Below, piece after piece: positions 1 to 25,604 of a stretch of DNA of 64,000 nucleotides. The translations under genes were made by a program, and so were the position numbers. Every line of letters begins with the position of its first letter. Position 1 is the stretch's first letter. The stretch is from an uncultured virus (IMG/VR IMGVR_UViG_3300044998_001320) (taxonomy: Duplodnaviria > Heunggongvirae > Uroviricota > Caudoviricetes): the IMG/VR virus record IMGVR_UViG_3300044998_001320, one strand, 5' to 3'. A model generated the notes under the pieces. The model ran no database searches. It was given only the letters and a program-made list of their open reading frames with translations, and was not told the origin of the DNA.

Positions 1-3000
1 TGTCGGGTGGCTTTACTCAGGCGGGCGTGCTGCTGTCAAATTTTGCCCCGGGGCTGGCAGCTCCCTTGTTCGTGATTAACGACGTGCTCGACACGATCGG
101 GATGGCCAGTGAGAACCTGCCGGCCTTGAGGGATGCATTTGCTGGTATCAAAGGTCAAGTGGGTAATGTTTCAGTGCTGTTCGGGGGGATGGCAGGCAGG
201 CTGTCTATTGCCAAGTCAGCGATCGTTGACCTAGCTAAGTCAGGACTGAGCAGTCTTGGAGGGCTGATTTCTGTTGTTCCCAATCTCAGCGGGGCGATGT
301 CCTTTTTTGGATTGACCTCAACAGCAGCAAACATAGCCCAGGCGACCACGGCAGGCATGGCGGCGGCGGCTACGGCAACCCAAGCGGCGATCACAACCAG
401 TAGCACCTCAGCTATGGCGATCGGCTTCGGGGGACTGGGAACGGCGGCAGGGGCCGCTTGGACGGCAATCACAGGGCCGTTGCTTCCCTTTATCGGCGGG
501 GCGGCGGCAGTCGTGGCAGCAGTGGTGCTCATCAAAAAAGCTTTCGATAGCAACTTCCTGGGAATCCGTGATCGGGTGACAGGGGTATTCAAGGCGATTA
601 GCGAGGTGGGTGCTTGGCTGTTGACCCCGTTTCAGGCGATCGGCACGGCAATCCAGGGCGCGATCACATCGATTACTCATGGATGGCAGGCAGTTCAGGA
701 CACAGTGTCCGGTGTGCTGGGATTCCTGCCAAGGTTGGCGTTTAGTGCGGGCGAGGGGCTGGTGAACGCCCTGAACCACAACCCCACGGTGCGCATCCCC
801 ATTGCTTGGGATGGAGCTGAGGCGCGGGTGACGGAATCGATTCAAGCGATCGTCCCCGTGGCGGAAACGACGGGGGCCCAGTTGACGGAAGCCCTATCGA
901 ACCAGCCGGTAATTCAGCCGGTCGTGGCTGGGGTGACAGGGATGGCAGCGCAACCGACACAGCAACCCGCACCAATCCCATCAATGACCTCACTTGCGCC
1001 GATTACTGTGGGGGTCGCGGGGGTTGTGACGCAGCTTGACCACCTGAAATCGGCGGCTATCGAGACGATTGGGGCGATCAATGTAGAGCCGGTCACGAAG
1101 GCGATCACTGCAACCCGCGAAGGCATTGGTGGGCTGATCCATGGATTCATGCAGTTGACTTTAGCCGCGCTGCCATCCCTGTTGCCGGTGGGCTTGGTGT
1201 TGGGAGGCGTCGCCTTAACGGCAGTGGCCGTGGCAACCAACTTCCTGGGGTTGGGGACGATCGCCAGAGCGGTATTCGATGGATTGCTTGGAGTGATCGC
1301 GGGGGTACGTCGAGCTTTCAGCGGCGTGATCCAAATTGTGCAGGGAGTGATCAATGTGTTTCAAGGCATGGGCGCAGCCTTGTCCGGCGATTGGTCGTTG
1401 CTGCAAATCGGATTAACCCAAATTCGGAGCGGGTTCCAGTTCGTGTTTGGCGGGCTAGGGGCGATCGTCCGCTCGGGATTGGAAGCGGCCAGGGGGGTTC
1501 TAAATGGCTTTGCCCAGGGAGTACAGCAAATTTGGGCAGTTGTCAAGCAATTCCTGGGGCCCGCTGGCGACCTGATTGATAGCATCTTTGGACGGATTGG
1601 CACGACGATTAGGCAGATTACAGGGCAAGTCGAGTACCTAGTCAGCAAACTGTCCGGGGTTGGACAGGCGATCTCCAATTCTCCCCTTGGTAAGCTGTTT
1701 GGTGGCAACAAGGGGACTAAAGTCGCAGCCCCAGAGCCAACTCAGCAGCCAGGGCTGCCAGGAGTCGTGCCCAACCCTACCAACAAGAGGACAGAAGTCA
1801 AGGACTCAATCAAAACCGCCGCGATCACCACGAATCAAATCACCACTGCCCAGACAGCGCTGGGTAGCCTCGGATCAATCGCTGGGGTTGTTGCACCGCA
1901 ATTGTCTGAGCCGATCGCAGCAGTGTCGTCGCTTTTTGATGGGTTCGCAGGATTGGCAGGGCTGCTCCCTCTGATTTCGTCAGCGATGGCGTTCTTTGGA
2001 GGCGCAACTTCGATTGCAAGCGCTGGAATGGCTGCGATATCAGCCGGGTTCGCGGGGTTGGCCACGGTGGCAGGCGCCGCCTGGGCAGCGGTCACGGGCC
2101 CCTTGCTGCCGGTCATCGCAGCGATTGGATTGGTTGGCGGAGCTATCTGGGCAATCTCACAAAACGTTGGAGGGCTAGGCGATGCATTCCGAGCCGTTTG
2201 GGAGGCAACGATTCAGCCCTTCTGGACGGCAATCTCGGAATCCAGCATGGCAATCCGCAAATCCCTTGATTTGATCGGGCGGGCAATTTCCGAAACATTT
2301 GGAGTGCAAGCAACCGGGCCTTTGAACTTATTTGGCAAGCTGGCGACGGGGGTGTTTACCCTGCTTCTGCTGCCAATTCGGGTTCTCTTGACCACGATCG
2401 GGGGAGTTATCAGGCTGGTTGGGGGGCTGGTGGCGGCGGTGCTATCCGGAGTGGCATCGATTGTACGGGTGGTGTTGTTTCCGGTGTCACTGGTCATACG
2501 AGGATTGGAAGCCCTAAGAGCGGCGGTCTGGTGGGTCGTGGATAGTGTGACTAGGGCGATGCTTAATCCACTGGAGGCAATCGGTTCGGTGGTTGGCTTT
2601 GTAGCCCAGATGATTGGTTCGGTGATGCCCCTGGTAGAGGCGATCGGGCAGGGGGTCTGGACAGGAGTTCAAGCGATCGGAGGGGTGCTGTCTGGTGGGA
2701 CAGCATTGATCACGACTCCCTTGTCTTGGCTAGTGACAACGATTGGAGTGATTGGACGATCAGTCGCGGGGTTATTGTCCCTGGTGTTCGGGGGGTTGGG
2801 CGATCTGGCTAGGACAATCGCTTCCGGACTTGGCAGTATCTTTCAGACGATCGTCAGTCCATTTCAACTGGCAATCGGCCTGATCGGACGGCTAATAAGC
2901 GCGGTGTCTGGAGTTGCAGGGGTGATCGGAGGCGCCTTTGGGGCGGTCAATCGGCTAATCAGCGGGGCGATTACTGGGCTTTGGTCGCTCTTGCCGCTGC

Positions 3001-3518
3001 CGATTCGTTGGGTGATTGAGCAGGCCAGTCAAGGGGTGGCTTGGGTTGCCAGTACAATAACCGGCGCTGGCACTGGTCAAGTTCAGGGCGCAGTGGAACC
3101 TCAACGCTTTGCGGTGGGCGGGCTGGTTCAAGGGGTTGGCGGGCCGACGGATGATCGGGTTCCGGCGTTGTTGTCAGCCGGAGAGTTTGTAGTTAATGCG
3201 GCGGCGACGGCGGCAAATCTCCCCTTGCTGGCAAGCCTGAATGCAGGTGGGGCGATTGCGTCTTTACCCGCGCCAATGCCACTACCAATGCCGCTACCCA
3301 TCCCGCTGCCCGTCCCGGCAACAGCACCAATCGCAGCAGGTGGATCCACGATGGCATCCCCAGAAATTCATGTTCATGTGAACGTGACAATCAATGGGAT
3401 GCCTGAAGAGGTGGCTAAGACCCTGGGCGATCGGGTTTTAGATGAACTGGCCTACAGCGAGCAATTCCAACGCGGGATTCGTGATCAGTTGCGTGACCTG
3501 GTGGAATTCAGTAAGTAG
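1..3518 (+). CDS. Tail tape measure protein (5'-truncated by the window edge)
   Basis: >1160 aa Ala/Gly-rich amphipathic repeats (GAAWxAxTGPLLP twice); C-terminal FAVGGLVQGVGGPTDDRVPALLSAGEFVVNA motif typical of tape measures. Confidence 0.9.
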   Translation, partial: SGGFTQAGVLLSNFAPGLAAPLFVINDVLDTIGMASENLPALRDAFAGIKGQVGNVSVLFGGMAGRLSIAKSAIVDLAKSGLSSLGGLISVVPNLSGAMSFFGLTSTAANIAQATTAGMAAAATATQAAITTSSTSAMAIGFGGLGTAAGAAWTAITGPLLPFIGGAAAVVAAVVLIKKAFDSNFLGIRDRVTGVFKAISEVGAWLLTPFQAIGTAIQGAITSITHGWQAVQDTVSGVLGFLPRLAFSAGEGLVNALNHNPTVRIPIAWDGAEARVTESIQAIVPVAETTGAQLTEALSNQPVIQPVVAGVTGMAAQPTQQPAPIPSMTSLAPITVGVAGVVTQLDHLKSAAIETIGAINVEPVTKAITATREGIGGLIHGFMQLTLAALPSLLPVGLVLGGVALTAVAVATNFLGLGTIARAVFDGLLGVIAGVRRAFSGVIQIVQGVINVFQGMGAALSGDWSLLQIGLTQIRSGFQFVFGGLGAIVRSGLEAARGVLNGFAQGVQQIWAVVKQFLGPAGDLIDSIFGRIGTTIRQITGQVEYLVSKLSGVGQAISNSPLGKLFGGNKGTKVAAPEPTQQPGLPGVVPNPTNKRTEVKDSIKTAAITTNQITTAQTALGSLGSIAGVVAPQLSEPIAAVSSLFDGFAGLAGLLPLISSAMAFFGGATSIASAGMAAISAGFAGLATVAGAAWAAVTGPLLPVIAAIGLVGGAIWAISQNVGGLGDAFRAVWEATIQPFWTAISESSMAIRKSLDLIGRAISETFGVQATGPLNLFGKLATGVFTLLLLPIRVLLTTIGGVIRLVGGLVAAVLSGVASIVRVVLFPVSLVIRGLEALRAAVWWVVDSVTRAMLNPLEAIGSVVGFVAQMIGSVMPLVEAIGQGVWTGVQAIGGVLSGGTALITTPLSWLVTTIGVIGRSVAGLLSLVFGGLGDLARTIASGLGSIFQTIVSPFQLAIGLIGRLISAVSGVAGVIGGAFGAVNRLISGAITGLWSLLPLPIRWVIEQASQGVAWVASTITGAGTGQVQGAVEPQRFAVGGLVQGVGGPTDDRVPALLSAGEFVVNAAATAANLPLLASLNAGGAIASLPAPMPLPMPLPIPLPVPATAPIAAGGSTMASPEIHVHVNVTINGMPEEVAKTLGDRVLDELAYSEQFQRGIRDQLRDLVEFSK

Positions 3519-4295: not shown

Positions 4296-4315
4296 GCGTC
4301 CAAATTTTCTGGATC

Positions 4316-4346
4316 CACAAGCCCGCCTTTACAGGGCGGGCTTGTG
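4316..4346. terminator. Hairpin between convergent genes
   Basis: CACAAGCCCGCC-N7-GGCGGGCTTGTG, perfect 12-bp stem. Confidence 0.65.
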
Positions 4347-4381
4347 CTTGGAGCGATCAAATTCAAATCAGAAAGGCTCAG

Positions 4382-5908
4382 TTACTGAGATTCTTCTTTC
4401 TGCTGAGATATGTAGGCTTCAAGATTTTTCCATGCGTCAACAGCGGGGATTGACATCTTGTCCTTTGTGAGGCGGTCAAGAAAATCCTTTTGGGTAGTGT
4501 AGGGCGCACCGCTTCGCAAGCGCCGCACATCGGTATCATTCTTAAACCCAAGAATTTCCTTTAGCTCACGGTCAGTCTTGCTGTTGATCAACCTGTTCAG
4601 GGTGTTCAAGGCTTGCTGCTCAGAGGAGACACCTCCACTTCCTAAGCCCGCAAGTACTGATTCTTTGGCCGCTTCGCCACCCTTGGATCTCAATCGCAAT
4701 CCACAAGATCCAAAGTTTTGGAGTCGGCGGGTTAGCTCAGGGTTTACAAATAAGGGAGACTTATTGCTCCAATCGCCAGTGGTAATGGCCTTTAAAGTCT
4801 CTTCGTAAGCTGACCGGGCAGATCCATAGACGGCGACTAGGCGATCAGGTAATCCAGTGGGATTACCACTGGCGATTGCCTCAGCAAACCGACGGGCTTC
4901 GGCGGTCGACTTACCGACACCATCTTCGTTTTGAGCAATGATGAGGGCAAGGTCTTCCTTGAGTTTAGCGTTGAACGCCGGATTTTGCAATGTACTGCCA
5001 GGAATTTTGCCGGCGATCGCGAGCTGTACACGGGCGTTAGGCGACAGTCCCGACAACCCTTCGCTATTCAACTTGTTTCCTAAAATCAGCTCTTCTACCT
5101 TGGCGGCCTCTTCCTTGAGGCAAGGGTGAAGCAGGCGCTCAGCAACGGAGGCTTCACCTTTTCGATCACGGTCGGACTGGGATTCGTCTTGACGAAGATC
5201 CTGGAGGATCGACGGGCCTAAAGGACGAGCCAGACTATGCTGGCTAACAACGCCGCCTAATAGCTTAAAGCTTAGCTCAACTACGGCGTGACGATACCCC
5301 GCAATTCCACCAGGTAGCGGTGTGTCATATGTGGGCTGGATCTCCGTACAAACACAGGGGTCAGCTTCGATTTTGCCCTGCCGAACCAAGAGGGTCGGCG
5401 GGGTATTGGTGTCAGGTTGAATCTCCTGAAGTAAGGACAGGTTTTCAACTAATTGAGACACATCCTCGTGCTCTGACCAGAACTCTAGGGAGAACCGGAA
5501 CGTACGAGCTGAAACGCCATCGAACTGACTGCCCACGCGGATTCCTTTCTCGGAGCGATCAGGCCAGTTAGCCTGCTGACTTTGACTGACCTCTGAAACC
5601 CCAATCCCTAGAAGTGATCGCCCGGTGGGATTCAGATCAAGGGTCTCTCCCTTGAGCGTGCCGGTCAGGAAGGTGATCTCGATCGGGGCATAGAACGCTG
5701 GGCGGGTTGCGGCGCGGGTCTGCCGATCAATCACTGATCGGGGGTTGTTTTTCTGGGGGGCATTGCGAGTATTGGGGGGCGGCGCTGGGTTGGCTGTGTT
5801 GCTCGCGACCCTAGGCTGTCCCGCTACCGGACTTGGGGTGTTGGCGGGAGGCGCACCGGGTCTAGGGGTTGGGGCGATCGGCTGGGTTGGCTTGGGGTTG
5901 GTCGGCAT
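4382..5908 (-). CDS. Tail tube initiator / gpU-like baseplate protein with Pro-rich N-terminus and helical C-terminal extension
   Basis: SQFDGVSARTFRFSLEF...PPTLLVRQG...CVCTEIQPTY...HAVVELSFK pattern of gpU/CIS-tube-like domains; ATG 5908 preferred over the ORF-track start, which lies inside the repeat. Confidence 0.6.
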   Translation of the reverse strand: MPTNPKPTQPIAPTPRPGAPPANTPSPVAGQPRVASNTANPAPPPNTRNAPQKNNPRSVIDRQTRAATRPAFYAPIEITFLTGTLKGETLDLNPTGRSLLGIGVSEVSQSQQANWPDRSEKGIRVGSQFDGVSARTFRFSLEFWSEHEDVSQLVENLSLLQEIQPDTNTPPTLLVRQGKIEADPCVCTEIQPTYDTPLPGGIAGYRHAVVELSFKLLGGVVSQHSLARPLGPSILQDLRQDESQSDRDRKGEASVAERLLHPCLKEEAAKVEELILGNKLNSEGLSGLSPNARVQLAIAGKIPGSTLQNPAFNAKLKEDLALIIAQNEDGVGKSTAEARRFAEAIASGNPTGLPDRLVAVYGSARSAYEETLKAITTGDWSNKSPLFVNPELTRRLQNFGSCGLRLRSKGGEAAKESVLAGLGSGGVSSEQQALNTLNRLINSKTDRELKEILGFKNDTDVRRLRSGAPYTTQKDFLDRLTKDKMSIPAVDAWKNLEAYISQQKEESQ

Positions 5909-5947
5909 CGGCGGGTCTACTAGAGTCCACTCCAATCCTACCGCGGT

Positions 5948-6529
5948 CGAACATTTACTCGACAATCGGTGAAACCCTTACGGCGCGGGCGGTTGCTGCA
6001 CCAGAGCGAGACTAAATGTTCGCAATCTCGCATTTACTTCACGAGCGCAACGGCGACCGCTTGAAACCCGGGCTGGAGGTGGAACCGAGCAAATGGCAGA
6101 AGTAAATGTTCATCTCGCATTTACTTTATAGGTAACGCCTGAAACTCTTGCGGAACAAGGGTTTCACGACTAAATGTTCATCTCGCATTTAGTCCGAGTA
6201 AATGTCATTTTCAACATTTAGTCGGCGTCTTTTTGGCGGCTTGTCCTTGTTTGTATTTATTTATTACGGGCCAAAAACGCGCGCGTGTGCGTGCATGCGC
6301 GCGAATATCACAACCAGAGCATGCTGTCAAGTGGTTGACGAGAAAAACTGCCGATCAAATCTCAACAACGGATCGACATGAGATGGGGTTTGGTAGTTAA
6401 TGGTGCTCGCGCGTTTTGCGGCTGATTCCAGGGGCGTGAAGGCGGCTTGCTGGCAAGTCAGGTATGTTGGGATGTTTAGCCCTAAAACAGGCGGCAAATT
6501 GGGGTGGTTTTTTGGGGGTGGCGATTAAG
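5948..6529. repeat. 582-bp non-coding direct repeat, copy 1
   Basis: Identical to 56686-57267 except T6404/C57142 and T6465/G57203 (compared by eye). Confidence 0.95.
6300..6330 (-). promoter_or_regulatory. Possible sigma70-type promoter inside the repeat, facing the palindrome array (also in copy 2 at 57038-57068)
   Basis: Perfect TTGACA at 6330-6325; only a weak -10 (TGTGATATTC). Confidence 0.35.
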
Positions 6530-6605
6530 TTGGCGATCAAGGTGGGTCGACGTAGCGGGCAAAATGATCGCCATGTGCTTTTTATGACAATGGGCGGTGC
6601 GCCAC

Positions 6606-7076
6606 TCAGGCTAATCCAAAAAAAGGCTGTCCGTTCAAGGTTAGGTCGCTCACGAACGCCAACATGCCATTGTTGTATCGCGCTCCAGCGTATTCGTAGT
6701 ACCCAAAAGTGAGCAAATCTTCTGTGGCATAGCGAGTGGGGACAAACCGGATGTATGCCCGCAGTTGTCCTGTGCCGTGATCCACTTTGGTTTCTACGTA
6801 GATTGACTCAATACCTCTTACCCAGCGTTTAATTTCCTGTCGCGCAGCATAGGCCCAGTATTGAGGGGCCACGTTATTGAGGTTCTCGAACAGATCAGGA
6901 GCTAGCCCCTTGTCGGGGTGGATATAGTCCTCCCCTTTGCGGGTTAGTAGCACAGTCAAAATCCCAGAGGAGATTTGGCGTGTGCCGCTGACGATTTGAA
7001 GCTGCCCTGTGCGATCGTCGTGGGCAGGCCATAGCGTCCAGCTAGAGCCAAGGTGAGCATAGGGGTCAGTGAACAT
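6606..7076 (-). CDS. Baseplate gp25/gpW-like protein
   Basis: ILTVLLTRKGEDYIHPDKG...IKRWVRGI matches the gp25 pattern LxTxxGERxxxPxFG; next to the tube gene. Confidence 0.8.
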   Translation of the reverse strand: MFTDPYAHLGSSWTLWPAHDDRTGQLQIVSGTRQISSGILTVLLTRKGEDYIHPDKGLAPDLFENLNNVAPQYWAYAARQEIKRWVRGIESIYVETKVDHGTGQLRAYIRFVPTRYATEDLLTFGYYEYAGARYNNGMLAFVSDLTLNGQPFFGLA

Positions 7077-7178
7077 GGTGCGGATTTGATAGCAGAAAGC
7101 GGCCAATCTTGTTAGACCGGCCGCCAATGTGAGGATGAAGATTAGCGGGTTGCCGTAATTCTCATGAGCTAATCCTCT

Positions 7179-7694
7179 TTACAATCCATCAATTCCCTTG
7201 TACATCGGCTTGATGTTGTCGTAAGAGATCGTCATTTTCATGAGCTGATCCTCTTCAGAATCCATCTCACCACCCGGCAAATCGAAGGATGTTGGCCACA
7301 TACCATAGACAGTGAACTCTTCGTTCTTCCTAGCACTGCCTGCGGCGGTTTGACCTCCACCCATAAATAGACGGTGGTAAATGATTCGCCCGTTGCGTTT
7401 GTATTCTGGTTTAACCCCGTCCCTTGACAAATCAAAGGCTTGATAAGCCCAGACAATCAAGGTATCCAAAGAGGACTGATGTGCAAGTTGAAACTCGACA
7501 TCGAATGTTCCTGGCTTTGAGACACCGGTGGGAACCTGAGTTCCATCCTTCAGCGTGATGATGCCGTTTTCCTGTGTGATATCGCCGATCGAGGTGGTGA
7601 TAATCGCTGAGGTACCAAAACCATCAATGATTAGCTCAACCTGAGACTTTCGGAAGACGTTACCTTCAAGAACGCCTTTAACTTGGATTGACAT
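7179..7694 (-). CDS. Tail tube protein
   Basis: 171 aa directly after sheath; YKRNGRI...FTVYGMWPTSFDLPGGEMDSEEDQLMKMTISYD, T4 gp19-like. Confidence 0.85.
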   Translation of the reverse strand: MSIQVKGVLEGNVFRKSQVELIIDGFGTSAIITTSIGDITQENGIITLKDGTQVPTGVSKPGTFDVEFQLAHQSSLDTLIVWAYQAFDLSRDGVKPEYKRNGRIIYHRLFMGGGQTAAGSARKNEEFTVYGMWPTSFDLPGGEMDSEEDQLMKMTISYDNIKPMYKGIDGL

Positions 7695-7709
7695 GATTTG
7701 AATCTCCTA

Positions 7710-10700
7710 CTAGTTGCGTCCCATAACTGAGCCAAAATCTGCAGACAGCACATCAGGCCCCAGGTTGATTGACAGTTGCTCCAGCACGCCTGCAGGAACC
7801 CACCGGACATCGATATCGAGCTTGCCTTGGATAATCCGCACGATCGCCTGCACCGCAGCCTGGTCGTTGACCACGTTCTGGGTGGGAGCCGACGAGTCCA
7901 TGAAAACGGCTTGCTGGAATGTGAGGTTATTGTTAATTGCCCCCTTGCGGTATTCATTTGCAAAGAATGCGTCCAGTTTCATCAGGATGACTTGCTGGAG
8001 CCTGGGGCTATTAGTCCGGAACAGCACCTCAAACAGCGATCGCGCCTCCAGGAAGATCCGAATGTAGTTCGATTGCGTGCGACGGATATGCAGGAAATCC
8101 CACAGTTGATTGATCGACGGCGCTCGAACACCCCAAATGACCGCGTTACCCTGGAGCATCTTGATCGTCTGAAGCCCTGCAACGTTGATCACCGCTTCGT
8201 CCTCGGGGTAAGCCTTGAAGGGCAGCGACAAAACTCCCGGCAAGATCTCGTTGACACCGGCAGCCGGGTCGTGGTAGCCCTGCACGACACTGGCTTTATA
8301 GGACTCCTTGCCCATCACCAGCCCCGAGAGCGTCACCAGTCGCTTGCCCGCCCCAAACGGGTTGGCAACGTAGCAGTAACTGGGGAATGCCGCTGACACG
8401 AAGTCTGATCGCCCCAGCTCTTCGTTGATGAAATTCTCGGCCATGGGAGCGCTGTTGTATGACAGCGGCACTTCCACTCGATACTCGAAAGCCCGCGCCG
8501 CTGCATAGTCCGCGCCGGCCTTCTGTACCGAGACGTCCGAAATTCCAGGGCAGGCGATCCGCACTAGTCCCAGGTTTTGTCCCCAGACAGCTCGTTCAAT
8601 GAAGTTGCCGCCAACCTCATTCCCGTCCGCCTCTAAAAACTGGATCCAGTGGTACGGAATCGTGTTAGCCAAGTCGCCGTCGTAGCCTCGGCGAAGCTGT
8701 TCGGTGTACGAGGCGATGAAATGATTCCCCACCTGGCTGTACAGCGACAGATCTGCACCAGGGTTTAGGATGATCAGCCCTGCGCGCGCTCCTTTGGTTA
8801 GGGCTGGCAGGTTCACAGCAAACGCCTTCTCTAGGTAGAGAAGCGTGTCTGACTGGATGAGCCGCACCTTGCGGGCCGTCTGGGATCTGGGGTCGTACAG
8901 ATAATCACCCTTGGTCAGCTCGGACGTAAACAGTGTGCCCACGCCATTGACCGTCGTGCCACTGCTGCTGATTGTGCCAGTCAGGTCAGCTTGGGCAACG
9001 GTGTCAAACGCGCTAAAGTGTTGACGCGGCAGGGAATAGGGATTCGGGTAGAATCGACCTCCACGGCCAGTTCCTCGCTTGAGTGCGTTGTAGTCAAGCT
9101 GTCCATAGACCCAAGCCTTATTGGCTTCGATCGCAACAATCCGTCCAGAGCCATTGGCAGGGCGCACGTCCATGCCAGGGCTGGTAGTGTAATCCGATTC
9201 CCACAGAGATCGTGCACGGATCCACTGAGGATAGTTCCCGCCATCGGTGCGATAACCGATGTTTTGCGCCTCCACAATCTCATCCACAAAGACCGGGCTG
9301 GTGGGGTCGAGGCTGGCATCGTCTATCTGCAAAACCTTGGAGCCATTAAAGAACACCTCCAAGCTAAAGTTCTCGGCGGGGTTCCGGAGTCCTTGCCCCA
9401 CTTTGACCTCTAGTCCTGTCTTGTTTTCAGAAGCTAAAGTGACAGAAGCAAATTGGTTTTGCTTCGTGATTGAGGCATTGGTGAAGCTGTCAGCAAAGGG
9501 GCGTTCAACCTTCAGGCTGGTGGCTGATGTGATCGATACGATCTTGACACTGCCGCTGCGCCGATTGGGGTCAACGATCCACTGCCCAACCTGGCACTCC
9601 GTCAGAAAGTTGGTACCTGTGCCGGACACCGTCGTGCTATCCGTCGTCAATTGGGATCCAGCCGTCAGCTCGGTGCTGAACCCGGACACCAGGGTTAGCT
9701 TGGTATTGCTGGTGATTGCCGCGATTTTGCGGCCTTGGCGATCGCCCGTAGGAGAAGAATAGTAAACCGTATCACCTACAGACAGATCGGTGGTAAAGTT
9801 CGTGCCTGTACCGGTGACCTCCAGGTTGTCGGTGCTGACCGTTGTACCTGAAGGAGCGTCCTGGGAAAAGGCTTCGGCGATCGTGGCAGTCGTGTTACTG
9901 GTAATTGACTCAATCCGTCGGGCCTCGCCATTCCAGTAGAGATTCTGACCGACCACCAGATCGTTCACGAAATTCGTGCCAGCGCCCGCCACGACGTTGC
10001 CGACAATCGTCACCGTTCCCGTTAGAGTCCGCTGGAGCGGGAAAGCAACCGTGCCGGTGATTGTGGTGTAGCGGTTGTAGCTGGCCGTACCAGTCAGAAT
10101 CGTTGGGCCCGAAATCCCATCGGTCAGCAGATTGTATTGGGCGGCCACCGTGAAAATCACCTCCCCAGTGGTGGGGTTGGCTGCGGTGTTGCCGACGATT
10201 CGATAGAGCCTGCCGGGTGCGCTTGTGAACTGAGCGTCGGCGCCATCAAACTCGTTAGACTCCACTCCGGGCGCAAATAGGGTAAATGTCCGAGTGGTGG
10301 CGACGATTACGGGGGTGCGGGGGATTTCATTGCCAGCGCCACCCCAGCGCCCACCATTCGCCGCCGTGATTTCCAAGGCATCACCACCCAGCCGGTTTTT
10401 GAGGATCAGCTTGGCAGGGCGACTCTTGCGCTCTAGGGGTAACCGGGCGACCCACAAGGTACCCCGCCCAGCGGAGGCACGGAAATAGCCGTCGATCGCA
10501 TCGGGCATTTGATGAGCGCCGTCATCAAACAAATGCCATCGTTCGTCATTAGGGTCGCCAAACAGGTTGTTGTACTCCCGCTTGCTGGAGACGGGGACTG
10601 CCACACCTTCAGGCCCCCGCTTTAAGACACCTAGGAAAAAGGCCGCGCCATAGTTTGCGTCAGCAAGGGGGCTGACGCCAGGGACTTCGCGTACCTTAAT

Positions 10701-14462: not shown

Positions 14463-14702
14463 TTAAGTTTCCAGGTCAGTATGACGTATTATTTGCACAA
14501 GTTCATGAACTAATCGAATCCCTTTGTTGTTGGAGGGGTTGCATGTTTCCGCATCAATTTTAGCAAGAACACGCTCAATTTCGCGCAAATTTCTTAGAGC
14601 TATTGACAGGTTGAATCGTAGACGGGCGATTTCTTGGTCGCGATCACGTAGTGCGCTTTGCACTTCAGGGTCTAGAAACACTGGGTTAACTTGATAGGGC
14701 AT
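14463..14702 (-). CDS. Hypothetical coiled-coil protein
   Basis: In-operon ORF overlapping the dnaG stop. Confidence 0.5.
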   Translation of the reverse strand: MPYQVNPVFLDPEVQSALRDRDQEIARLRFNLSIALRNLREIERVLAKIDAETCNPSNNKGIRLVHELVQIIRHTDLET

Positions 14703-16677
14703 CTCCTTGATAAACCTCCCTGATCTTTGCCCAAAATAAAATTTGTTCTTTGTTCAAATAGGACAACACAAGCTCGTTTTGTTCTTTGGATTTAAAGAGT
14801 TCATCCCAGGTTTTCAACAAAGGAAATAGGTCGGACACCTGAAAATCAGGGTGCTTACTGACATGATCCATTCCTTGTCTTAAATATGAAATAAACTCCT
14901 CAAGATTCTCATCCTCGGGCATTTTTGTCGCTGATTGCTCATGTTTTTCTGCCAGATCAATCGCTTCTATTTGTTTCTGAAGATCGCGACGCTCTTGGAT
15001 TTTTCTTAGCACTTCCCATGCCTGAAAAATCGTGGTAGCAGGGTCACTTAGGGACATCTGATCAAACGCCGATGGGAATGCCAGCGAATCAATGATCGCC
15101 GCCGGCAACCCCTCGATTTCTCCAATATCTGCTAGCCCCACGCCATCCCAAATCGCGTTCCACAGCATTGGCCAGTAGCAGTCCCAGCCGTTAATAGCCA
15201 GTTCTGCTTTCACCCGTAGATCCCAATCAATGGACGATGATTGATGCAGTAATATCCGAGCGATCGCCAGCTCTGCCGATTCCCCAGGGCGGAATACCAT
15301 CACCTCAGTAGAGCTGGGCGCACTTTTCTTGGGGCGGGGCGATGATCTTCGCTGGCTCCGCGCTTCATCAATGATCGCGCGACGGGCCTCGTCGTCGCCT
15401 GGTGCAAAGTAGCTGGCCATCTGACGCAGCCGTTCTAACCGCATTGCCGGGGCGGTGATCTGCGAGAGGAGAGTTGTTAAATCTTCACGAATCTGGGCGC
15501 GTGCCTCGATCGGTGTTGCGTTGTGTCGAGAGGCATCCAAGGCAATCAGCCAGGTCAGGTAATCCGGCGCTTCCACAAGTCCTTGGGTGATCACTGCTGG
15601 CCCGTGAGATCGGATTGCCTCGTCAGGATCCTTGCAATCCTCAGGTAACTCTAGCACGCGCAACGGTAGTCGCCCTGACAAAATCAACGATCGCATGGGA
15701 GGATCCTCGGATAAGCGGCGCGCTGCCCGCGTCCCTGCTTTGTCACGATCTAAGATCAGCACCAGAGGAGCCAGCCGTGCCAGCCGTGTCGCCAAGTCTG
15801 CCGACAGGTTCACGCCCATCACCGCCCCCGCTGGAATGCCCGCCTCGTTCAGGGCGATCGCATCGAAGTATCCCTCAACTATCGACAGAGATCGCCCTTG
15901 CTTCAGCAGCGGTCGAGCGTGATGCAACCCATAGAGCGTCAGGGTTTTGCGCCAGATACTGGTCTCGCGAGTGTTTAGGTACTTAGGCTCCCGATCATCC
16001 AGTACCCGCCCCGCCAGGGCGATCGCCCGCCCCCGATCGTCAAAGATCGGAATCACCAGCCGTTGCCACAGAAAATCTACGAATTCCCCCTGCTTGTTCG
16101 TTGCCAAGCCCGCCGCCTGGATCTCATCGGGGCCATACCCCGCCTTCAGGAGGTGTGAAACCAGTCCACCCCCCGCCCAGCCTAGTTGATACTTGTCAGC
16201 GATTTCCCGTTGTCTTATCCCTCGCCGCTTCAAATGCTCCCGTGCAGGTTGTCCGTCCGGCGTATAGAGCATTTGGCGGTAAAAGTCCACCGCCATAGCC
16301 ATCAGTGACCGTAGTCGATCCTGGGACTCTCGCTTAGCTTTTTGCGCCGCCCAGTCGGATCCACCCTTGGAGGTTCGCTCGATTACAACGCTGTACCGCT
16401 CCGCCAACTCCTCGACTACTTCACCGAAAGACCGCCCGCTCAACTCCATCAAAAAATTGATCGCATCCCCATGCGCCCCACAAGCAAAACAGTGATAAAA
16501 TCCTTTGTCTGGGCTAACTGTTAAACTTGGCCTTGTGTCTTGGTGGAATGGGCACAATCCCTGAAGATCCTTTCCGACCTTTTTGAGATGGATCTCGCGA
16601 CCAATAACTTCACCAATGTCAATCCGCCTCTTAAGCTCATCGATGGTGGATCGTGATATTCCTTGACTAATACTCAT
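14686..16677 (-). CDS. dnaG: DNA primase
   Basis: CPFH...HCFACG zinc finger, PKYLNT, TOPRIM IVEGYFD and DRDKAG, KDPDE. Confidence 0.95.
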   Translation of the reverse strand: MSISQGISRSTIDELKRRIDIGEVIGREIHLKKVGKDLQGLCPFHQDTRPSLTVSPDKGFYHCFACGAHGDAINFLMELSGRSFGEVVEELAERYSVVIERTSKGGSDWAAQKAKRESQDRLRSLMAMAVDFYRQMLYTPDGQPAREHLKRRGIRQREIADKYQLGWAGGGLVSHLLKAGYGPDEIQAAGLATNKQGEFVDFLWQRLVIPIFDDRGRAIALAGRVLDDREPKYLNTRETSIWRKTLTLYGLHHARPLLKQGRSLSIVEGYFDAIALNEAGIPAGAVMGVNLSADLATRLARLAPLVLILDRDKAGTRAARRLSEDPPMRSLILSGRLPLRVLELPEDCKDPDEAIRSHGPAVITQGLVEAPDYLTWLIALDASRHNATPIEARAQIREDLTTLLSQITAPAMRLERLRQMASYFAPGDDEARRAIIDEARSQRRSSPRPKKSAPSSTEVMVFRPGESAELAIARILLHQSSSIDWDLRVKAELAINGWDCYWPMLWNAIWDGVGLADIGEIEGLPAAIIDSLAFPSAFDQMSLSDPATTIFQAWEVLRKIQERRDLQKQIEAIDLAEKHEQSATKMPEDENLEEFISYLRQGMDHVSKHPDFQVSDLFPLLKTWDELFKSKEQNELVLSYLNKEQILFWAKIREVYQGDALSS

Positions 16678-18145
16678 CGTACCCCCCTTGCTCTTGTCCA
16701 TAGGCGCGGTTGTGGAAAGTTGAGGTTTCGTATTGGTAGAGAACTGGGAAGATTCCTGTACCGGTGCGTCGTCCCTTGAGCAGCAATATTTCAGCTTCCG
16801 CCAGCCGGTTTGATCGTTTCAATTCCGCCTCAAGGCTGATATCGAAATAGGCGGGGCGATGCAAGGCAAGCAAGTAACCAGCCGTCTCAGCAATTGCACT
16901 GGAATCCTTGATGTCGTTTTTAGTTGGACGCTTGTCATTTCTGTTCTCGATCGCTTTCCCTGTGACCTGAGAGAGGCAAAAGAAATTCACCCGCAATTCA
17001 AGGGCCAGGTTTGACAGGCGGATCATAGCTCCGCTGATTTCGTTGGCTGTGTTCACAGACCCACCATAGGAGGCCATCCGTTGCACGTAGTCGACATAGA
17101 ACGCCCCACCTTTTTGAGCGTGATTCAGAGACCAACGCCGTAGGATCGCCTCTAAGTGCGACGCTGACAGTCCATGGGCGTCCTGGATGTAGATCGGCAG
17201 GTTCGCCAGTTGAGACCGCGCCTCAATTAAAGCCTGTTGTTGTTGTTGGGACAGGGCCGCGCGCCCTGCATTTGACAGAAATGCCTTGACCGGCAGGTTT
17301 GCCAGCTTGGAGACCAATTGCTCTTCTAGTTGGTCTTTGGTCTGTTCGTAGGTAAAAAGGGCGACCGGGATTCCCTTCTCGGCTTGACTTAGCACCATGT
17401 CTAGAGCAAAGGACGTTTTCCCCATCGAGGTCATCCCTGCGATCACGGTGGTAAAGCCCAGCTCAAAGCCCCCGCCTAGATGCCGGTCAAGATCGGTAAA
17501 GCCCGATGGGATAAGGATCTTGCCGTCACCCTCGTTAAGGTAAGACTCGTAATCCGCCTCAGCCCTTACCCCAAGCTCGGCGACGTGCACTAGATCCTCC
17601 CCTCTTTGTGAGTAAGTGAGGGAAAACAAGGACTGGGAAACGCGAGTGTTCCGCTCTTCAGCGGTTAGAGACCGATCGCGACACAATCGCCTGAGATCTT
17701 CAAGGGTTTTGTCAATATGTCGGGCGATCGCAAATTCCAAAATCTGGTCAGCGATTCCGGATAAATTCGTAGCCGCGTAGCCGGAGTTGTAAATTCCCAG
17801 GATCCAGTCCTTGCCGCCGTAGCGCTTGTACCGATCGGGGTCAATGCCTGCGAGGTAAGAGGCTAATAGCTTAGCGTCAAGGGACTGACCTGATCGGTGT
17901 AGGAAGGACATCCCCTCAAAGAGCCACTGACAAGACGGCTCTACAAAACACCTCTCGGGGGGGTCTGTAAACGACTCAGGGCGGCTGCCTGACTCCAGAA
18001 CACCCAATACTTCGGCGAACTGATCAGGATAAGCCAGTAGCGCCCCGAGCAAGGATCGTTCCAGGTCAGGATCTCCGATTATTGAGGAGGGGATCTCAGT
18101 GATGGACAGGGGTGGAGATGGGGAGGAAGCGCGGGCAAAGGTCAT
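16667..18145 (-). CDS. dnaB: Replicative DNA helicase
   Basis: ERSLLGALL, SGFTDLD, Walker A AGMTSMGKT, VDYVQ, LSQ, KRP...KDSSAI, KGRRTGTG. Confidence 0.92.
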   Translation of the reverse strand: MTFARASSPSPPLSITEIPSSIIGDPDLERSLLGALLAYPDQFAEVLGVLESGSRPESFTDPPERCFVEPSCQWLFEGMSFLHRSGQSLDAKLLASYLAGIDPDRYKRYGGKDWILGIYNSGYAATNLSGIADQILEFAIARHIDKTLEDLRRLCRDRSLTAEERNTRVSQSLFSLTYSQRGEDLVHVAELGVRAEADYESYLNEGDGKILIPSGFTDLDRHLGGGFELGFTTVIAGMTSMGKTSFALDMVLSQAEKGIPVALFTYEQTKDQLEEQLVSKLANLPVKAFLSNAGRAALSQQQQQALIEARSQLANLPIYIQDAHGLSASHLEAILRRWSLNHAQKGGAFYVDYVQRMASYGGSVNTANEISGAMIRLSNLALELRVNFFCLSQVTGKAIENRNDKRPTKNDIKDSSAIAETAGYLLALHRPAYFDISLEAELKRSNRLAEAEILLLKGRRTGTGIFPVLYQYETSTFHNRAYGQEQGGYDEY

Positions 18146-18166
18146 CTTATTGACTCACTAAAAAGG

Positions 18167-19429
18167 CTAGAGGTATGGGGTCGGATCAAATCCCGGTTTG
18201 TGTCGAATCCCCTTATCAAGGGGTTCACCCGGTTTACGAATCAGAGTGTCTGGCACTGGAAGGCCTGAGCGCCTCGCTTGATCTTGTCGCCGCAGCCTCG
18301 ATTGTGCCCAGTCTTGCCAGGGGTGATCTGGGGGGATGTCGCGCCACCGAGATCGAATTTCCTCGTCGGACAGCGCCCTTGCCTCTTCGCTGGTGAGGGA
18401 GGGCTTGGGGTAAGGTGATGGCGGAGGTTGCCTGTCCCCTGGATGTACCTCCCCCCCGGAGGATCTTGCTCTCTGCAGTGAGATGGCTTCGCGAATCGCG
18501 GTCAAACGATTCAGCCCGTTCTCAAAATCGGCTTCGTTGAAAGACTTGAGAAACATGCAGGCGCGGCGCAGCCAGTTTCTTGCATCCCCCGGTTGAGCGT
18601 TGCTCCCCTGGGAAGTTGACCGCAGGTGCTTCAGCGCTTCATTGACCGCTTCGTCTGTGAATTCACCTGGATCGCAACTCTTGGGGGCAAATAATTCGCC
18701 AAACCCGAGGGCATAGGCCTCTCGCCAGTAATAGCTCGGGTGATTCCAGCGTACGTAGTCCACGATCTTGGCTCGCTCGATCGCCCCTGCGTCTCGCCAC
18801 TGGGCTGGACTGACCGGCAGGGTGATCGAGGGTTGGGTGACGGTGGGTCGCTCCATGACCGCTACCGCTGGACTGGGATGACAAAGCTGCGGTGCGGTAA
18901 CTGTGTCCACAGGTACAGAGGCAGGAGTCGAGGATTTGACCACAGCAGCGGCGCGGATTGGGCGACAGCTCCGCTGCTCACCCTTGAGTGGACGCTGCGA
19001 TCGCTTTCTGCGCCAAACCCGCCACCCCGCGACTGTCATAGTTCTCTCTAGGGTTTCGCCCGTCGCCTTGAATCGCCCTACGGCTTCATCTAACAGCTCC
19101 AAATCAAGTTCATACCAGGTAGTCTTGAACCCGTTGTAGAAACTTGAGCCGTGGCACTTCAGAATCCCGAGTGGCTCCAAAAGGGCGCGCGCCGCGTCAA
19201 TGTGTGATCGCTTAAGGTCGTAGTCTTCCCAGGAGGGAGTTCCATGGCGTTGCGTAGTCAAAGGCATGTGGAACCTGGTTTCTCCGCGCTCTTTTGCGCG
19301 GTTTTGCCAATACCAGCACTCCGCCAGAAACAAGGCGATCGCATGAGACCCGGTCATCTTGACGAAAATGCGCTGGATCGAGAGGACGTTGCGTTGTCCC
19401 GTCAGATCAGTCGGCGACAAGTGCTTCAT
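18167..19429 (-). CDS. Phage replication initiator-like protein
   Basis: N-terminal winged-helix-like segment (VKMTGSHAIALFLAECWYW...TWYELDLELL); directly upstream of dnaB-dnaG. Confidence 0.65.
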   Translation of the reverse strand: MKHLSPTDLTGQRNVLSIQRIFVKMTGSHAIALFLAECWYWQNRAKERGETRFHMPLTTQRHGTPSWEDYDLKRSHIDAARALLEPLGILKCHGSSFYNGFKTTWYELDLELLDEAVGRFKATGETLERTMTVAGWRVWRRKRSQRPLKGEQRSCRPIRAAAVVKSSTPASVPVDTVTAPQLCHPSPAVAVMERPTVTQPSITLPVSPAQWRDAGAIERAKIVDYVRWNHPSYYWREAYALGFGELFAPKSCDPGEFTDEAVNEALKHLRSTSQGSNAQPGDARNWLRRACMFLKSFNEADFENGLNRLTAIREAISLQRARSSGGEVHPGDRQPPPSPYPKPSLTSEEARALSDEEIRSRWRDIPPDHPWQDWAQSRLRRQDQARRSGLPVPDTLIRKPGEPLDKGIRHKPGFDPTPYL

Positions 19430-19449
19430 AGCTCATCTCACTCGTCAAA

Positions 19450-19899
19450 TTAAAAAAACAAATTCAAACGCCCTGTAATTTTAGTTTTGCTTATCAACGG
19501 CAGTAAAAAACAAGCCACGCCACCGGGAACCAGTAGCGAGGCAGAGGTTTTGACAAATTCAATCTTTGTCGAGAAAAAGAGGCTGGTGGCGATTGTATCG
19601 AAGCGTCCGATCTGTTCCTGTACCAACGGGTCTAGCACGCTAGCACAAACTCGCTTATAGCGCGGTGCGTGCGATTGCCCGACAACAACCCATGCATGGT
19701 TGACCTCAATACAGGCATTGCCGGGTGGCAAGGGTTGTGCAATCTGCCCTACGCCGGCTGCCATTTCGAGGGTGTGTTGATAAGTGAGATTCGCTAGTGC
19801 CTTGGCGGTCTGCTCCGGAGTTTCTCGGTTGTCGGGGCCTGCCCAGATGAGTGGAATGGCGTGACCAGATAGAAGTCGCCGTGTGGGTTGTGTTATCAT
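19450..19899 (-). CDS. Hypothetical protein
   Basis: First ORF of the leftward replication operon; ATG 19899. Confidence 0.45.
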   Translation of the reverse strand: MITQPTRRLLSGHAIPLIWAGPDNRETPEQTAKALANLTYQHTLEMAAGVGQIAQPLPPGNACIEVNHAWVVVGQSHAPRYKRVCASVLDPLVQEQIGRFDTIATSLFFSTKIEFVKTSASLLVPGGVACFLLPLISKTKITGRLNLFF

Positions 19900-20097
19900 G
19901 TTTCCATGCTTTTTTCTTGATATTGAGCCGCTAGGGGTGATGGCCTTGGCGGCTCTTTTGTAACTATACCCGACTTGGTGCAAGCTTGCACCAAAAAAAT
20001 ATCGAGGGCTGATGCTAAAATAGCGACAAACCACCAAACCGCCAAATCACCAGAACCTCGCGAAACCGTGCATTTGCGGGGTTCTATTTTTGTGCAT

Positions 20098-21456: not shown

Positions 21457-21870
21457 ATGCTGACAACTGTCAAACCCGTAGTCCTGCTTGTCGAAGATGA
21501 CCCCGACGATGCTGCTCTCTCCAGTGACTTCCTGAGAGCGGCCGGCTGTCGGGTAGTCCTTTGCAATTCCGGCGAGGCAGCTTTGCGAGAGATTGATCGC
21601 AAAACCCCTTGCGACGCGATCATTGCTGATTTGCGAATGCCCGGGATGGGTGGACACGAACTACTGAAAGCCCTCAAAGCTCGCAAGTTGCAATTTCTCA
21701 CTGTCATTCTCAGTTCTAGCAGCTACCACAGGGATATTGATCGCGCTTATCAGTCTGGGGCAAATCTTTATATCGAAAAGCCGCGAGACCTGGATGACTG
21801 GCGCAAGACTCTAGCTACCCTCGCTAATCTGTACTTCTTACCGTGGATCAAGAAACCGACAGCCTACTAA
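21457..21870 (+). CDS. Single-domain response regulator (Rcp1-like)
   Basis: LLVEDD, IIADLRMP, ILSSS...DIDRAYQSGANLYIEKP. Confidence 0.93.
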   Translation: MLTTVKPVVLLVEDDPDDAALSSDFLRAAGCRVVLCNSGEAALREIDRKTPCDAIIADLRMPGMGGHELLKALKARKLQFLTVILSSSSYHRDIDRAYQSGANLYIEKPRDLDDWRKTLATLANLYFLPWIKKPTAY

Positions 21871-22625
21871 TTCTCTGCGTTGAGGACAATGATGATGACT
21901 GGGTGGAGCTGCAAACCCAGCTCGCCTCAGCGAAGATCTATGCTGAGTTCGGCATCGCCTGGAAGCGTTGCAAGTCGATTCATCAGGCCAAGAGCGAAAT
22001 CGAGTCGCAGCGTCCCGATATCATCTTGCTGGACTTGAAGCTGGTTGATTCGGCAAACCCCTTGGACACGACACGCACGGTGTCCGAAATTGCAACCCCA
22101 CTTGGGATCCCAATCGTGATTTTGAGTGGACTGCGAGATGATCCAACGATCGCTCGCGAATGTTCGCTAGCCGGGGCCTTTCAGCATCTCCAAAAAGGGC
22201 GTTTTGACGAGATCAACCTCCTTAACGCGATCCGTCTTAGCTACCAACGCAATCGAGAACTGCAACGCCAGCGTGATCTGTACTTGAACGCCCAACTCTT
22301 GGCGGCTGAAAACTTAGCTCTAGCCGAACAAGCCGCCGGGGTGTTGACGAAATTACGAGCAGACTTACGGAGATTTGCTCGTAATGAGCGTAACCGGCGC
22401 GTAGTCTACACGGCGCTTTTGGCGTCCCTGCTCTTTGTAGCATTCCCTTCGATCGAGGCGAACACTCTGAAACTAAAGGTTTCCAGCGAAGTGATCGGGC
22501 TGTTCACGATCCTTTGTAGCTTTATTTGGGGTCAAGGGACTTTTCATGAACGGCTGAGGCAAGCTGAGTCCTCCCACGAAGTGATCATGCAACTCAAGAA
22601 GCGTCACCAGGATTCAGAGGACTAG
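21843..22625 (+). CDS. Receiver domain fused to a coiled coil and two predicted transmembrane helices
   Basis: ILCVEDN, ILLDLKL, ILSG, LQKG; hydrophobic VVYTALLASLLFVAF and VIGLFTILCSFIWG. Confidence 0.85.
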   Translation: MDQETDSLLILCVEDNDDDWVELQTQLASAKIYAEFGIAWKRCKSIHQAKSEIESQRPDIILLDLKLVDSANPLDTTRTVSEIATPLGIPIVILSGLRDDPTIARECSLAGAFQHLQKGRFDEINLLNAIRLSYQRNRELQRQRDLYLNAQLLAAENLALAEQAAGVLTKLRADLRRFARNERNRRVVYTALLASLLFVAFPSIEANTLKLKVSSEVIGLFTILCSFIWGQGTFHERLRQAESSHEVIMQLKKRHQDSED

Positions 22626-25597: not shown

Positions 25598-25604
25598 GGC
25601 TTGA

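Follow-up and report, generated by a model that had tools for sequence, protein, structure and literature searches.

A 582-bp non-coding cassette with an array of short palindromic sites, present in two copies in an uncultured tailed phage

What recognises the array of TAAATG/CATTTA palindromes found near the left end of a 64,000-nucleotide stretch of DNA from an uncultured tailed phage (IMG/VR record IMGVR_UViG_3300044998_001320), and is the array read as duplex DNA or as hairpin RNA? This whole 64-kb stretch is called the window below. A preliminary description of the array had proposed either initiator or recombinase binding sites of an origin, or a hairpin non-coding RNA array. We found that the array forms the left third of a non-coding cassette which occurs twice in the window, and that it is built from an 8-mer, A[C/G]TAAATG (written ASTAAATG below), every occurrence of which in the window lies in or beside the two copies.

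The cassette and its two copies

The two copies occupy the following positions.

Cassette copy 1: 5948-6529, non-coding, 582 bp, between the stop of gene 6606-7127 (minus strand) and the ATG at 5908 of gene 4382-5908 (minus strand)
Cassette copy 2: 56686-57267, direct orientation, offset 50,738 bp, between gene 57476-60496 (minus strand) and the HU gene 56021-56335 (minus strand)

BLAST aligned the copies over 582 bp with 99.66% identity (580 of 582 bases, mismatches at 6404 and 6465), and comparison of the window with itself at the 50,738-bp offset showed them to be exactly identical over 5948-6403 (456 bp). In the alignment the cassette edges were sharp and the flanks of the two copies were unrelated. 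Only a left repeat edge had been named in the preliminary description; the extent of the repeat and its second copy are additions of the present analysis.

Logan contigs of four metagenome runs, labelled hot spring or microbial mat, were compared with the window over 4300-8300. One of these (X12) had only 2-3x depth, with 11 of 30 bins covered. In each of the three well-covered runs the cassette was assembled as a contig of its own at about twice the depth of its flanks:

Run X5: cassette contig 535 bp, depth 224.6; flanks 113.1 and 128.3
Run X7: cassette contig 526 bp, depth 445.2; flanks 221.7 and 250
Run X10: cassette contig 559 bp, depth 557.1; flanks 246.6 and 264.4

At 5948 and 6529 the loose ends ran into the flanks of copy 2 in these independent runs, and the depth of the cassette divided by the sum of its two flanks was 0.93, 0.94 and 1.09. 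Because the cassette is a single contig at double depth with loose ends matching the copy 2 flanks, it is a true, strictly two-copy repeat, with no sign of further copies in the community. The strains differed from the window at three to five cassette positions and in each strain a single version was present at double depth (A>G at 6091 and at 6092, for example, stood at full double depth in 3/3 runs), so the copies are homogenised within a strain. The cassette was no more conserved than its surroundings, with 3-5 differences in 526-559 bp compared with 9-16 in approximately 1650 bp of coding flanks. None of the seven variant positions (6051, 6091, 6092, 6284, 6404, 6447 and 6465) fell in a palindrome or a TGAAACYC motif, where about 1.7 would be expected, a difference which is not significant and comes from too few positions for a test of constraint. 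The phage is abundant, with 100-300x depth in several mat metagenomes, and a warning to assemblers follows from the repeat, namely that such a genome appears as a figure of eight in short-read graphs.

No terminal inverted repeats or target-site duplication were present at the cassette ends, which read CGAACATTT... and ...GGCGATTAAG; the flanking bases are GCGGT/TTGGC and GATAA/GGGGT, with no duplication. A miniature inverted-repeat transposable element or other non-autonomous transposon was rejected for want of terminal inverted repeats, target duplication or many copies. A direct terminal repeat of a linear genome was also rejected, each repeat end having two different neighbours both in the window and in the independent runs. 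Two further ideas about the borders were dropped: the right part of the cassette does not recur in inverted form as the left flank of copy 2, and GGCGATYAAG as a boundary motif of the right edge is inflated by a GCGATC-rich background. At the right edge of copy 1 there is a 12-bp tandem, TGGCGATTAAGT / TGGCGATCAAGG, at 6517-6545, one unit of which is absent from the X5 and X10 contigs, indicating a strain indel polymorphism.

Half-sites, palindromes and the choice between duplex DNA and RNA

The pattern TAAATG-N(8-13)-CATTTA had eight matches in the window against a mean of 0.00 in 100 shuffles, and all four matches of copy 1 are repeated at 56751-56958. The bare hexamer TAAATG was not enriched (26 matches, 20.4 expected), so the signal lies in the arrangement and in a longer motif. 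This longer motif, ASTAAATG, had 19 matches against 2.11 expected, and all 19 are accounted for by nine in each cassette copy (within 271 bp) and one in an orphan unit beside copy 2. The nine sites of a cassette make up four inverted pairs of 25-28 bp and one solo site.

Pattern matches in copy 1: 6013-6036 (N12), 6103-6123 (N9), 6171-6191 (N9) and 6199-6220 (N10)
Palindrome A: 6010-6039, GACTAAATG-N12-CATTTACTT, outer arms non-complementary; copy 2 equivalent 56748-56777
Palindrome B: 6100-6126, AAGTAAATG-TTCATCTCG-CATTTACTT, perfect 9-bp arms (AAG/CTT outer); copy 2 equivalent 56838-56864
Palindrome C: 6168-6194, GACTAAATG-TTCATCTCG-CATTTAGTC, perfect 9-bp arms (GAC/GTC outer); copy 2 equivalent 56906-56932
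Palindrome D: 6196-6223, GAGTAAATG-N10-CATTTAGTC, one outer mismatch; copy 2 equivalent 56934-56961
Solo site: 5949-5961, minus strand, at the left edge of the cassette; the minus strand reads CGAGTAAATGTTC, with the 8-mer at 5952-5959
Orphan degenerate unit: 56616-56635, about 55 bp left of copy 2, with CTCGCATTTACTTT, a decayed left arm and a CTCGCA-N8-TGCGAG palindrome

When 300-bp stretches were scored for locally repeated 8-mers, the two arrays were the top short-repeat clusters of the window, scoring 47 and 43 against 10 for the next. That next cluster consists of three tandem AGGAAACACCA units at 63216-63248, in the intergenic gap 63106-63330. The four palindromes of the preliminary description were all found where it had placed them, as was its half-site at 5948-5957 on the left edge (CATTTA at 5952-5957), and the loop that it had noticed to recur is TTCATCTCG, identical in B and C. 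These two units share one common 21-mer, which in unit A is interrupted by an inserted GCA. The palindromes start at irregular distances from each other (90, 68 and 28 bp), and the spacing inside the inverted pairs also varies (N9, N9, N10 and N12).

The same description had stated that the outer arm bases change together between units. This holds for B and C, which are perfect 9-bp palindromes, and fails for A and D. To compare the arms, every site was oriented to read A[C/G]TAAATG and its context was listed. The outer bases are then GAC with AAG in A, AAG/AAG in B, GAC/GAC in C and GAG with GAC in D, and arm position 3 reads C/G, G/G, C/C and G/C in units A to D. Position 3 is thus complementary in two of the four units, which is the outcome given by independent half-sites carrying C or G. 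The core of the four units is invariant and therefore uninformative on compensatory change, and within the array we found no base pairs kept by such change, the outer arms being complementary in 2/4 units. At the two solo sites (5952-5959 and 56624-56631) the 8-mer is unaltered and no arm complements it, which argues that sequence, not pairing, is what is conserved. By what follows ATG the sites can be sorted into two kinds, those with 'tt(c/g)' (tca in the left arm of unit D) and those with 'cgag'; since units A-C each combine one site of either kind in constant order, the array has a polarity.

A second motif family, TGAAACYC, is interleaved with the palindromes.

First TGAAACYC motif: 5970-5977, plus strand, TGAAACCC
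Second TGAAACYC motif: 6062-6069, plus strand, TGAAACCC
Inverted TGAAACYC pair: 6140-6166, TGAAACTCTTG-N5-CAAGGGTTTCA, one motif at 6140 on the plus strand and one at 6159-6166 on the minus strand

The window contains 16 matches of this motif (4.84 expected), eight of them inside the two cassette copies. As had been noted earlier, TGAAAC occurs within each of the three long gaps (at 5970, 6062 and 6140, and again at 6159-6166 on the minus strand), and the hairpin at 6140-6166 does fold, being perfect only as plus-strand RNA, with one G-U pair. We take TGAAAC to resemble the repeat ends of cyanobacterial clustered regularly interspaced short palindromic repeats (CRISPR). A CRISPR array or CRISPR-like repeats were rejected, the TGAAAC motifs being 92 and 78 bp apart with differing sequence before them, and a tandem-repeat scan called nothing in the array. 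Between T- and A-runs, GAAACCCTTGC-N4-GCAAGGGTTTC hairpins were found in 3/401 cyanobacterial genomes (L031/G257, L033/G272 and L034/G316). These match the TGAAAC hairpin of the cassette at 90-93% over 27-29 nt and look like bidirectional terminators; homology to them was rejected and the cassette hairpin was treated as a terminator-like lookalike.

The 301 nt at 5940-6240 folded better than shuffled sequences on both strands (z -4.83 on the plus strand and -3.36 on the minus strand), but palindromes fold by construction, so z-scores of this kind are expected of them and are not independent evidence. As single-stranded DNA at 37 C the units have -1.6 to -8.3 kcal/mol; as RNA, most units lie above -4 kcal/mol at 65 C, and unit A has -0.6 to -2.1 kcal/mol at 55 C. 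Rfam gave a chance-level match only (E 0.98) in 5500-7000 and none at gathering score in the 64 kb, and no tRNA or tmRNA genes were detected. The scan for intrinsic terminators was empty in the array, where only unit D stands near a T-run. Given the weak stems, the Rfam result, the solo sites and the lack of covariation, we consider that the array is probably recognised as duplex DNA by a protein, rather than as hairpin RNA. A structured RNA is quite doubtful in our view, whether as a minus-strand operon leader of about 380 nt acting in processing, stability or antitermination, or as a plus-strand small RNA with several hairpins (B, the TGAAAC hairpin, C and D). Such an RNA would suit the folding on both strands, the slightly greater stability of the plus-strand hairpins, the G-U pair that perfects the TGAAAC hairpin on that strand, the UCUUUUU after unit D, also on the plus strand, and the presence of two copies, which recalls the paired nut or put sites of lambdoid phages. 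It is opposed by stems that are marginal at 55-65 C, by covariation in only 2/4 units with solo sites keeping the motif unpaired, by the Rfam and terminator results and by the G-rich right third of the cassette (6345-6532), which has no excess of RNA structure (z -0.03 and 0.10 on the two strands). The suggestion of a hairpin RNA array in the preliminary description is therefore disfavoured, all the more because the TTGACA from which it was to be transcribed has no consensus -10.

The remainder of the cassette contains the following features.

Inverted repeat: 6225-6237 and 6270-6282, GCGTCTTTTTGGC / GCCAAAAACGCGC, 13 nt, 85% complementary, bracketing the AT-rich tract
AT-rich tract: approximately 6244-6268, TTGTTTGTATTTATTTATTA, about 25 bp, 73% AT in 30 nt
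Alternating purine-pyrimidine tract: 6277-6303, ACGCGCGCGTGTGCGTGCATGCGCGCG, 27 nt, Z-DNA-prone and partly palindromic; copy at 57015-57041
Small palindrome TGTCAA-GTGG-TTGACG: 6325-6340, back-to-back -35-like hexamers, TTGACA (minus strand) and TTGACG (plus strand)

Apart from the tract at 6277-6303 and its copy, the 64 kb contain no alternating purine-pyrimidine run of 14 nt or longer. As for the TTGACA promoter proposed at 6330, the hexamer is indeed present on the minus strand (6330-6325), but at a spacing of 17 nt the second hexamer is TATTCG, and a sigma-70 consensus scan of 5700-6800 returned no promoter and no consensus -10.

Candidate functions, gene context and relatives

For the cassette as a whole we tentatively favour an origin-type, initiator-binding element present in two copies, as are oriL and oriR of SPP1, a reading drawn from sequence which may well prove wrong. 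The array would be its protein-recognition core, with the double-stranded 8-mer A[C/G]TAAATG as the working unit, and the two direct copies, 50.7 kb apart, would be kept identical through recombination between them. A phage DNA-binding protein would coat the array, the best candidate being an uncharacterised 420-aa protein encoded upstream of the DnaB and DnaG genes; the HU protein of the phage could assist through DNA bending, and the TGAAACYC motifs may serve a second factor. The nucleoprotein complex would then open the adjoining AT-rich tract between the inverted repeats, with the tract beside the AT-rich region able to absorb supercoiling, and the phage would thereby have two copies of an iteron-type replication origin. 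The motifs, their statistics, the duplication and the homogenisation within strains are directly established; that a protein binds, which protein it would be and that the cassette acts as an origin is what we infer.

Several findings are consistent with an origin. The array is the sole iteron-like cluster in the window, with nine ASTAAATG sites within 271 bp per cassette, where at least three repeated sites were asked of an iteron cluster; no comparable array was seen in or beside the replication genes (17800-20300). The phage has its own helicase and primase, and the HU gene adjoins copy 2. Of the earlier proposals, initiator or recombinase sites remain the best fit, in view of an 8-mer exclusive to the cassettes, the solo sites, the densest repeat cluster and the AT-rich tract that follows it; the recombinase half of that proposal found no gene to go with it. 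The 420-aa protein (18167-19429) has neighbours in the ESM Atlas that include replication-protein, DnaD-like, Phg_2220_C and HTH_36 clusters, and this lead makes it a candidate initiator.

Other observations weigh against an origin. The 420-aa protein had no match in Pfam, PHROGs or NCBIfam, so that its label rests on the language-model lead. Copy 1 is separated by 11.6 kb from the candidate initiator gene (18167-19429), unlike origins of the lambda type and SPP1 oriL, which are located within their initiator genes. SPP1 oriR indicates that a location beside the initiator gene is not universal (PMC6316719). Late structural genes surround both copies, and the distance of 40 bp from the end of copy 1 to a gene start would be just as fitting for a promoter cassette. 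With about 25 bp the AT-rich tract is short, and it ranks only 14 by AT among the 30-nt stretches of the window, and GC skew has no feature at either copy. Contig depth, a weak measure, reached its minimum immediately to the left of copy 1 and its maximum in the vicinity of copy 2, a pattern which is not predicted by two equally active origins.

The window belongs to a divergent tailed phage with 60 open reading frames (ORFs) of at least 79 aa in 64 kb. The full genome is estimated at about 76.6 kb, the 508-aa protein encoded next to copy 1 being on record on a 76,585-bp contig, so about 12.6 kb lies outside the window. The virion genes include a tape measure (27-3518), a portal, a major head protein, a head-tail adaptor, a VgrG-like spike (57476-60496) and tail-fibre-like proteins. 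Genes for replication and nucleotide metabolism encode a Gam-like protein, ThyX, a dCTP-deaminase-like protein, DnaG (14686-16701) and DnaB (16667-18145), and there are also a lysozyme, a GH9 cellulase, a histidine kinase and two response regulators. The features nearest the cassettes are listed here.

Gene downstream of copy 1: 4382-5908, minus strand, 508 aa, weak P2 GpU lead
Gene on the other side of copy 1: 6606-7127, minus strand, 173 aa, weak gp25 lead
HU-family DNA-binding protein gene: 56021-56335, minus strand, first gene downstream of copy 2, about 350 bp away
Terminator-like hairpin with U-tract: 57366-57401, minus strand, after the VgrG-like gene and upstream of copy 2, -15.2 kcal/mol, z -3.18

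Both copies are flanked by co-oriented minus-strand genes, and copy 2 occupies the largest non-coding gap of the window (1140 bp). The start of the 508-aa gene was reset to the ATG at 5908 on the basis of six homologues, which places it 40 bp from the cassette edge. The hairpin at 57366-57401 was not called in the terminator consensus scan. No terminase, integrase or recombinase was recognised by Pfam or PHROGs among the 60 ORFs; such genes may sit in the 12.6 kb outside the window or be too divergent. The sequence GCGATCGC, which we take to be the highly iterated palindrome (HIP1) signature of cyanobacteria, occurs 40 times in the window (1.70 expected), and because this excess fits HIP1 it points to a cyanobacterial host.

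Some other genes deserve mention in their own right. A histidine kinase with a PAS domain (19975-21453), a stand-alone receiver (21457-21870) and a 260-aa response regulator (21843-22625), whose C-terminal half has no domain match, adjoin a Cro/C1-type helix-turn-helix (HTH) gene (22594-22914); a complete two-component system is unusual in a phage. The GH9 cellulase, which has a CelD_N domain (23828-25927), directly adjoins the phage lysozyme (23396-23821) and may have the host sheath or exopolysaccharide as its target. Endolysin-like, DPBB (lytic transglycosylase) and M15 peptidase parts are combined in a 1031-aa protein (42926-46021), which is likely to be a cell-wall lysin associated with the tail.

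Relatives of the locus were sought in several collections. Against 50,697 phage records neither blastn of 5800-6700 nor tblastn of the 508-aa neighbour gave a match. In IMG/VR the exact 21-mer had no match, and a protein-guided search with the 508-aa protein, its alignment and the 619-aa protein gave no relatives. A degenerate form of the unit was set aside, having there 13 single matches, approximately the number estimated by chance, and one double match (L006) which is a coding repeat in an AT-rich contig. Scans of genome and metagenome contigs returned homologues of the 508-aa protein at 27-39% identity only (L014-L027); its closer relatives are on record as proteins (P0002-P0006, 62-81% identity). 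No cassette was present upstream of the homologue in the two loci examined, L014 and L016, the former containing a single TAAATG-N12-CATTTA inside an ORF, and for this reason copy 1 looks like a lineage-specific insertion into the tail-gene cluster. The orphan unit beside copy 2 suggests that copy 2 is the older locus. Among 401 cyanobacterial genomes no significant match to the cassette was obtained (best E 3.4e-4 over 23 nt). The idea of a host-factor site was likewise rejected: ASTAAATG-N8-13-CATTTAST occurred in 19/401 of these genomes, never clustered, against about 21 for the reversed control. A shared motif search across 22 intergenic regions revealed no common promoter motif and none shared with the other 20 regions. 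As no conserved sequence relatives of the cassette were found among the databases searched, its function is something that we infer.

Three further explanations were weighed against an origin. A leftward promoter within the cassette, with the palindromes as operator or activator sites for a phage regulator, is possible though on the unlikely side. The Cro/C1-type HTH protein (22594-22914), the 260-aa response regulator (21843-22625) or HU could be that regulator, exerting joint control over two late operons (the 508-aa tail gene; HU and the head genes). Both copies lie directly upstream of minus-strand genes, in the case of copy 1 only 40 bp before the ATG at 5908, and the terminator-like hairpin after the gene upstream of copy 2 implies that the genes downstream need a new promoter. 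The minus-strand TTGACA has TGTGATATT 15 nt downstream, and several candidate regulators are encoded, including the histidine kinase and two response regulators. Yet the scan of 5700-6800 made no sigma-70-type call, no motif is common with the other 20 intergenic regions, the divergent intergenic region of the Cro-like gene (22915-23016) contains no ASTAAATG, HU has 350 bp of its own AT-rich DNA before copy 2, and 582 identical bases go far beyond the needs of a promoter with operators. A recombination site or module boundary we consider improbable. The direct copies would delimit about 25 kb of genes (spike, ATPase, tape measure, Gam-like protein and 508-aa gene) as a module and be places of homologous or site-specific exchange, with inverted pairs of variable spacing acting like the sub-sites of a resolvase res site and HU as architectural protein, or the array would be a terminase site of pac or cos type in front of the head-gene operon. 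Sharp edges, unrelated flanks and direct orientation all agree with this, as do copies that are identical within a strain while strains differ (6091/6092 A>G in 3/3 runs), which indicates ongoing exchange. The units of 27-30 bp with variable spacers recall the res sub-sites of 25-34 bp, and the operon that includes the major head protein starts at copy 2. The repeat regions of Campylobacter group II phages offer an architectural parallel (PMC4546147). Set against recombination, no resolvase, integrase or transposase domain was found in the 60 ORFs, and site-specific resolution of the direct copies would distribute essential genes over two circles; for packaging, no terminase was recognised in the window that would place the cassette beside packaging genes. 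Were the cassette a module boundary, it would reveal the way in which tail genes pass from phage to phage in blocks of 25 kb.

The cassettes might in an extreme case act as synapsis sites, the genome of about 76.6 kb existing as, or switching into, circles of 50.7 and 25.9 kb, and this we regard as highly improbable. Each circle would then carry one copy of the same cis-acting replicator, partition or packaging region, and this tailed phage would have a regulated bipartite genome or an excisable 25-kb tail-tip module. Short reads cannot tell a figure-of-eight assembly graph from two circles, and the only argument for one molecule is that the length-weighted depths of the two genome arcs are near-equal (about 138 and 136 in X5, 281 and 279 in X10), which fits one molecule and so also speaks against resolution. 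We also consider it quite doubtful that the cassette is selfish or neutral, either a mobile element that is non-autonomous or a chance duplication of recent date without use to the phage. Near-identical copies with sharp edges, the insertion of copy 1 in the middle of a tail-gene cluster, the homologous upstream position lacking a cassette in both distant relatives examined (L014 and L016) and a conservation between strains no higher than that of coding flanks are all compatible with it. The cassette ends, on the other hand, lack terminal inverted repeats and a target-site duplication, the depth ratios (0.93, 0.94 and 1.09) leave no extra copies in host or community, and none of the 401 cyanobacterial genomes, the 50,697 phage records or IMG/VR yielded a significant match. 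The orphan unit outside copy 2 moreover indicates that the sites belong to that locus, and a motif density this extreme is unexpected for neutral DNA. If the origin reading, which we continue to prefer, is correct, the two-origin scheme of SPP1 would be extended to cyanophages. Uncultivated phages hardly ever have their origins, packaging sites or regulatory hubs mapped, and the cassette is a concrete candidate with a sharply defined 8-mer to serve as bait for its putative binding protein.

Comparison with known systems

Among the closest known systems is that of Bacillus phage SPP1, which has two origins (oriL and oriR) of similar organisation, with repeats, an AT-rich unwinding element and the gp38 initiator, one of them interrupting late virion genes; the second origin has been proposed to stall forks (PMC6316719). 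SPP1 resembles the present phage in encoding a DnaB-type helicase and in having two distinct regions, non-coding or in part coding, which combine an AT-rich tract with repeats for a single DNA-binding protein, a putative one in our case (PMC6316719). The repeats of SPP1 are direct, not palindromic, oriL lies within the initiator gene, and the two origins are similar, not 99.7% identical over 582 bp. The cassette adds to this scheme a second motif family and a Z-DNA-prone tract.

The lambda origin is single and lies inside gene O, with four regularly spaced dyad-symmetric iterons, an AT-rich region and a flanking GC-rich palindrome. The cassette shares with it the succession of four dyad-symmetric sites, AT-rich tract and GC-rich palindrome; unlike the lambda origin, its sites are irregularly spaced (90, 68 and 28 bp) and the element is duplicated. 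The res sites of the Tn3 family and of Sin consist of inverted-repeat sub-sites of 25-34 bp with variable spacers and act on two direct copies, Sin needing an HU-type protein. In contrast to the cassette, a res site measures about 90-120 bp, not 582 bp, and its use here would split the genome; no cognate serine recombinase was found among the 60 ORFs, which leave some 12.6 kb of the genome beyond the window uncovered.

PeSL cassettes are much shorter than the present element, occur many times per genome and flank small variable genes. They are repeated intergenic promoter-stem-loops of T4-type phages (PMC2839356, PMC4122927), and they would resemble our cassette in being repeated intergenic regulatory stem-loop sequences which flank modules and mediate shuffling. 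The cassette differs in having two copies of 582 bp that flank arcs of 25 kb and 50 kb. In the Campylobacter group II phages CP21, CP220 and CPt10, extragenic repeat regions (RR1-RR4) split the genome into modules; like the cassettes they are closely related extragenic repeats built of core-motif units, and they are thought to drive rearrangement (PMC4546147). These regions are given there as 1-2.9 kb long, with up to 18 units of 72-86 bp per arm and four regions per genome. Their genomes are described as AT-rich, with transposases and homing endonucleases, and the regions have no sequence similarity to the cassette.

The cassette is a new sequence family which most likely works like known protein-binding-site arrays. 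It is unusual in being duplicated almost without change, and in uniting within one two-copy element several kinds of structure-prone DNA, namely palindromes that could form cruciforms, a tract rich in AT and a long tract prone to the Z-DNA form.

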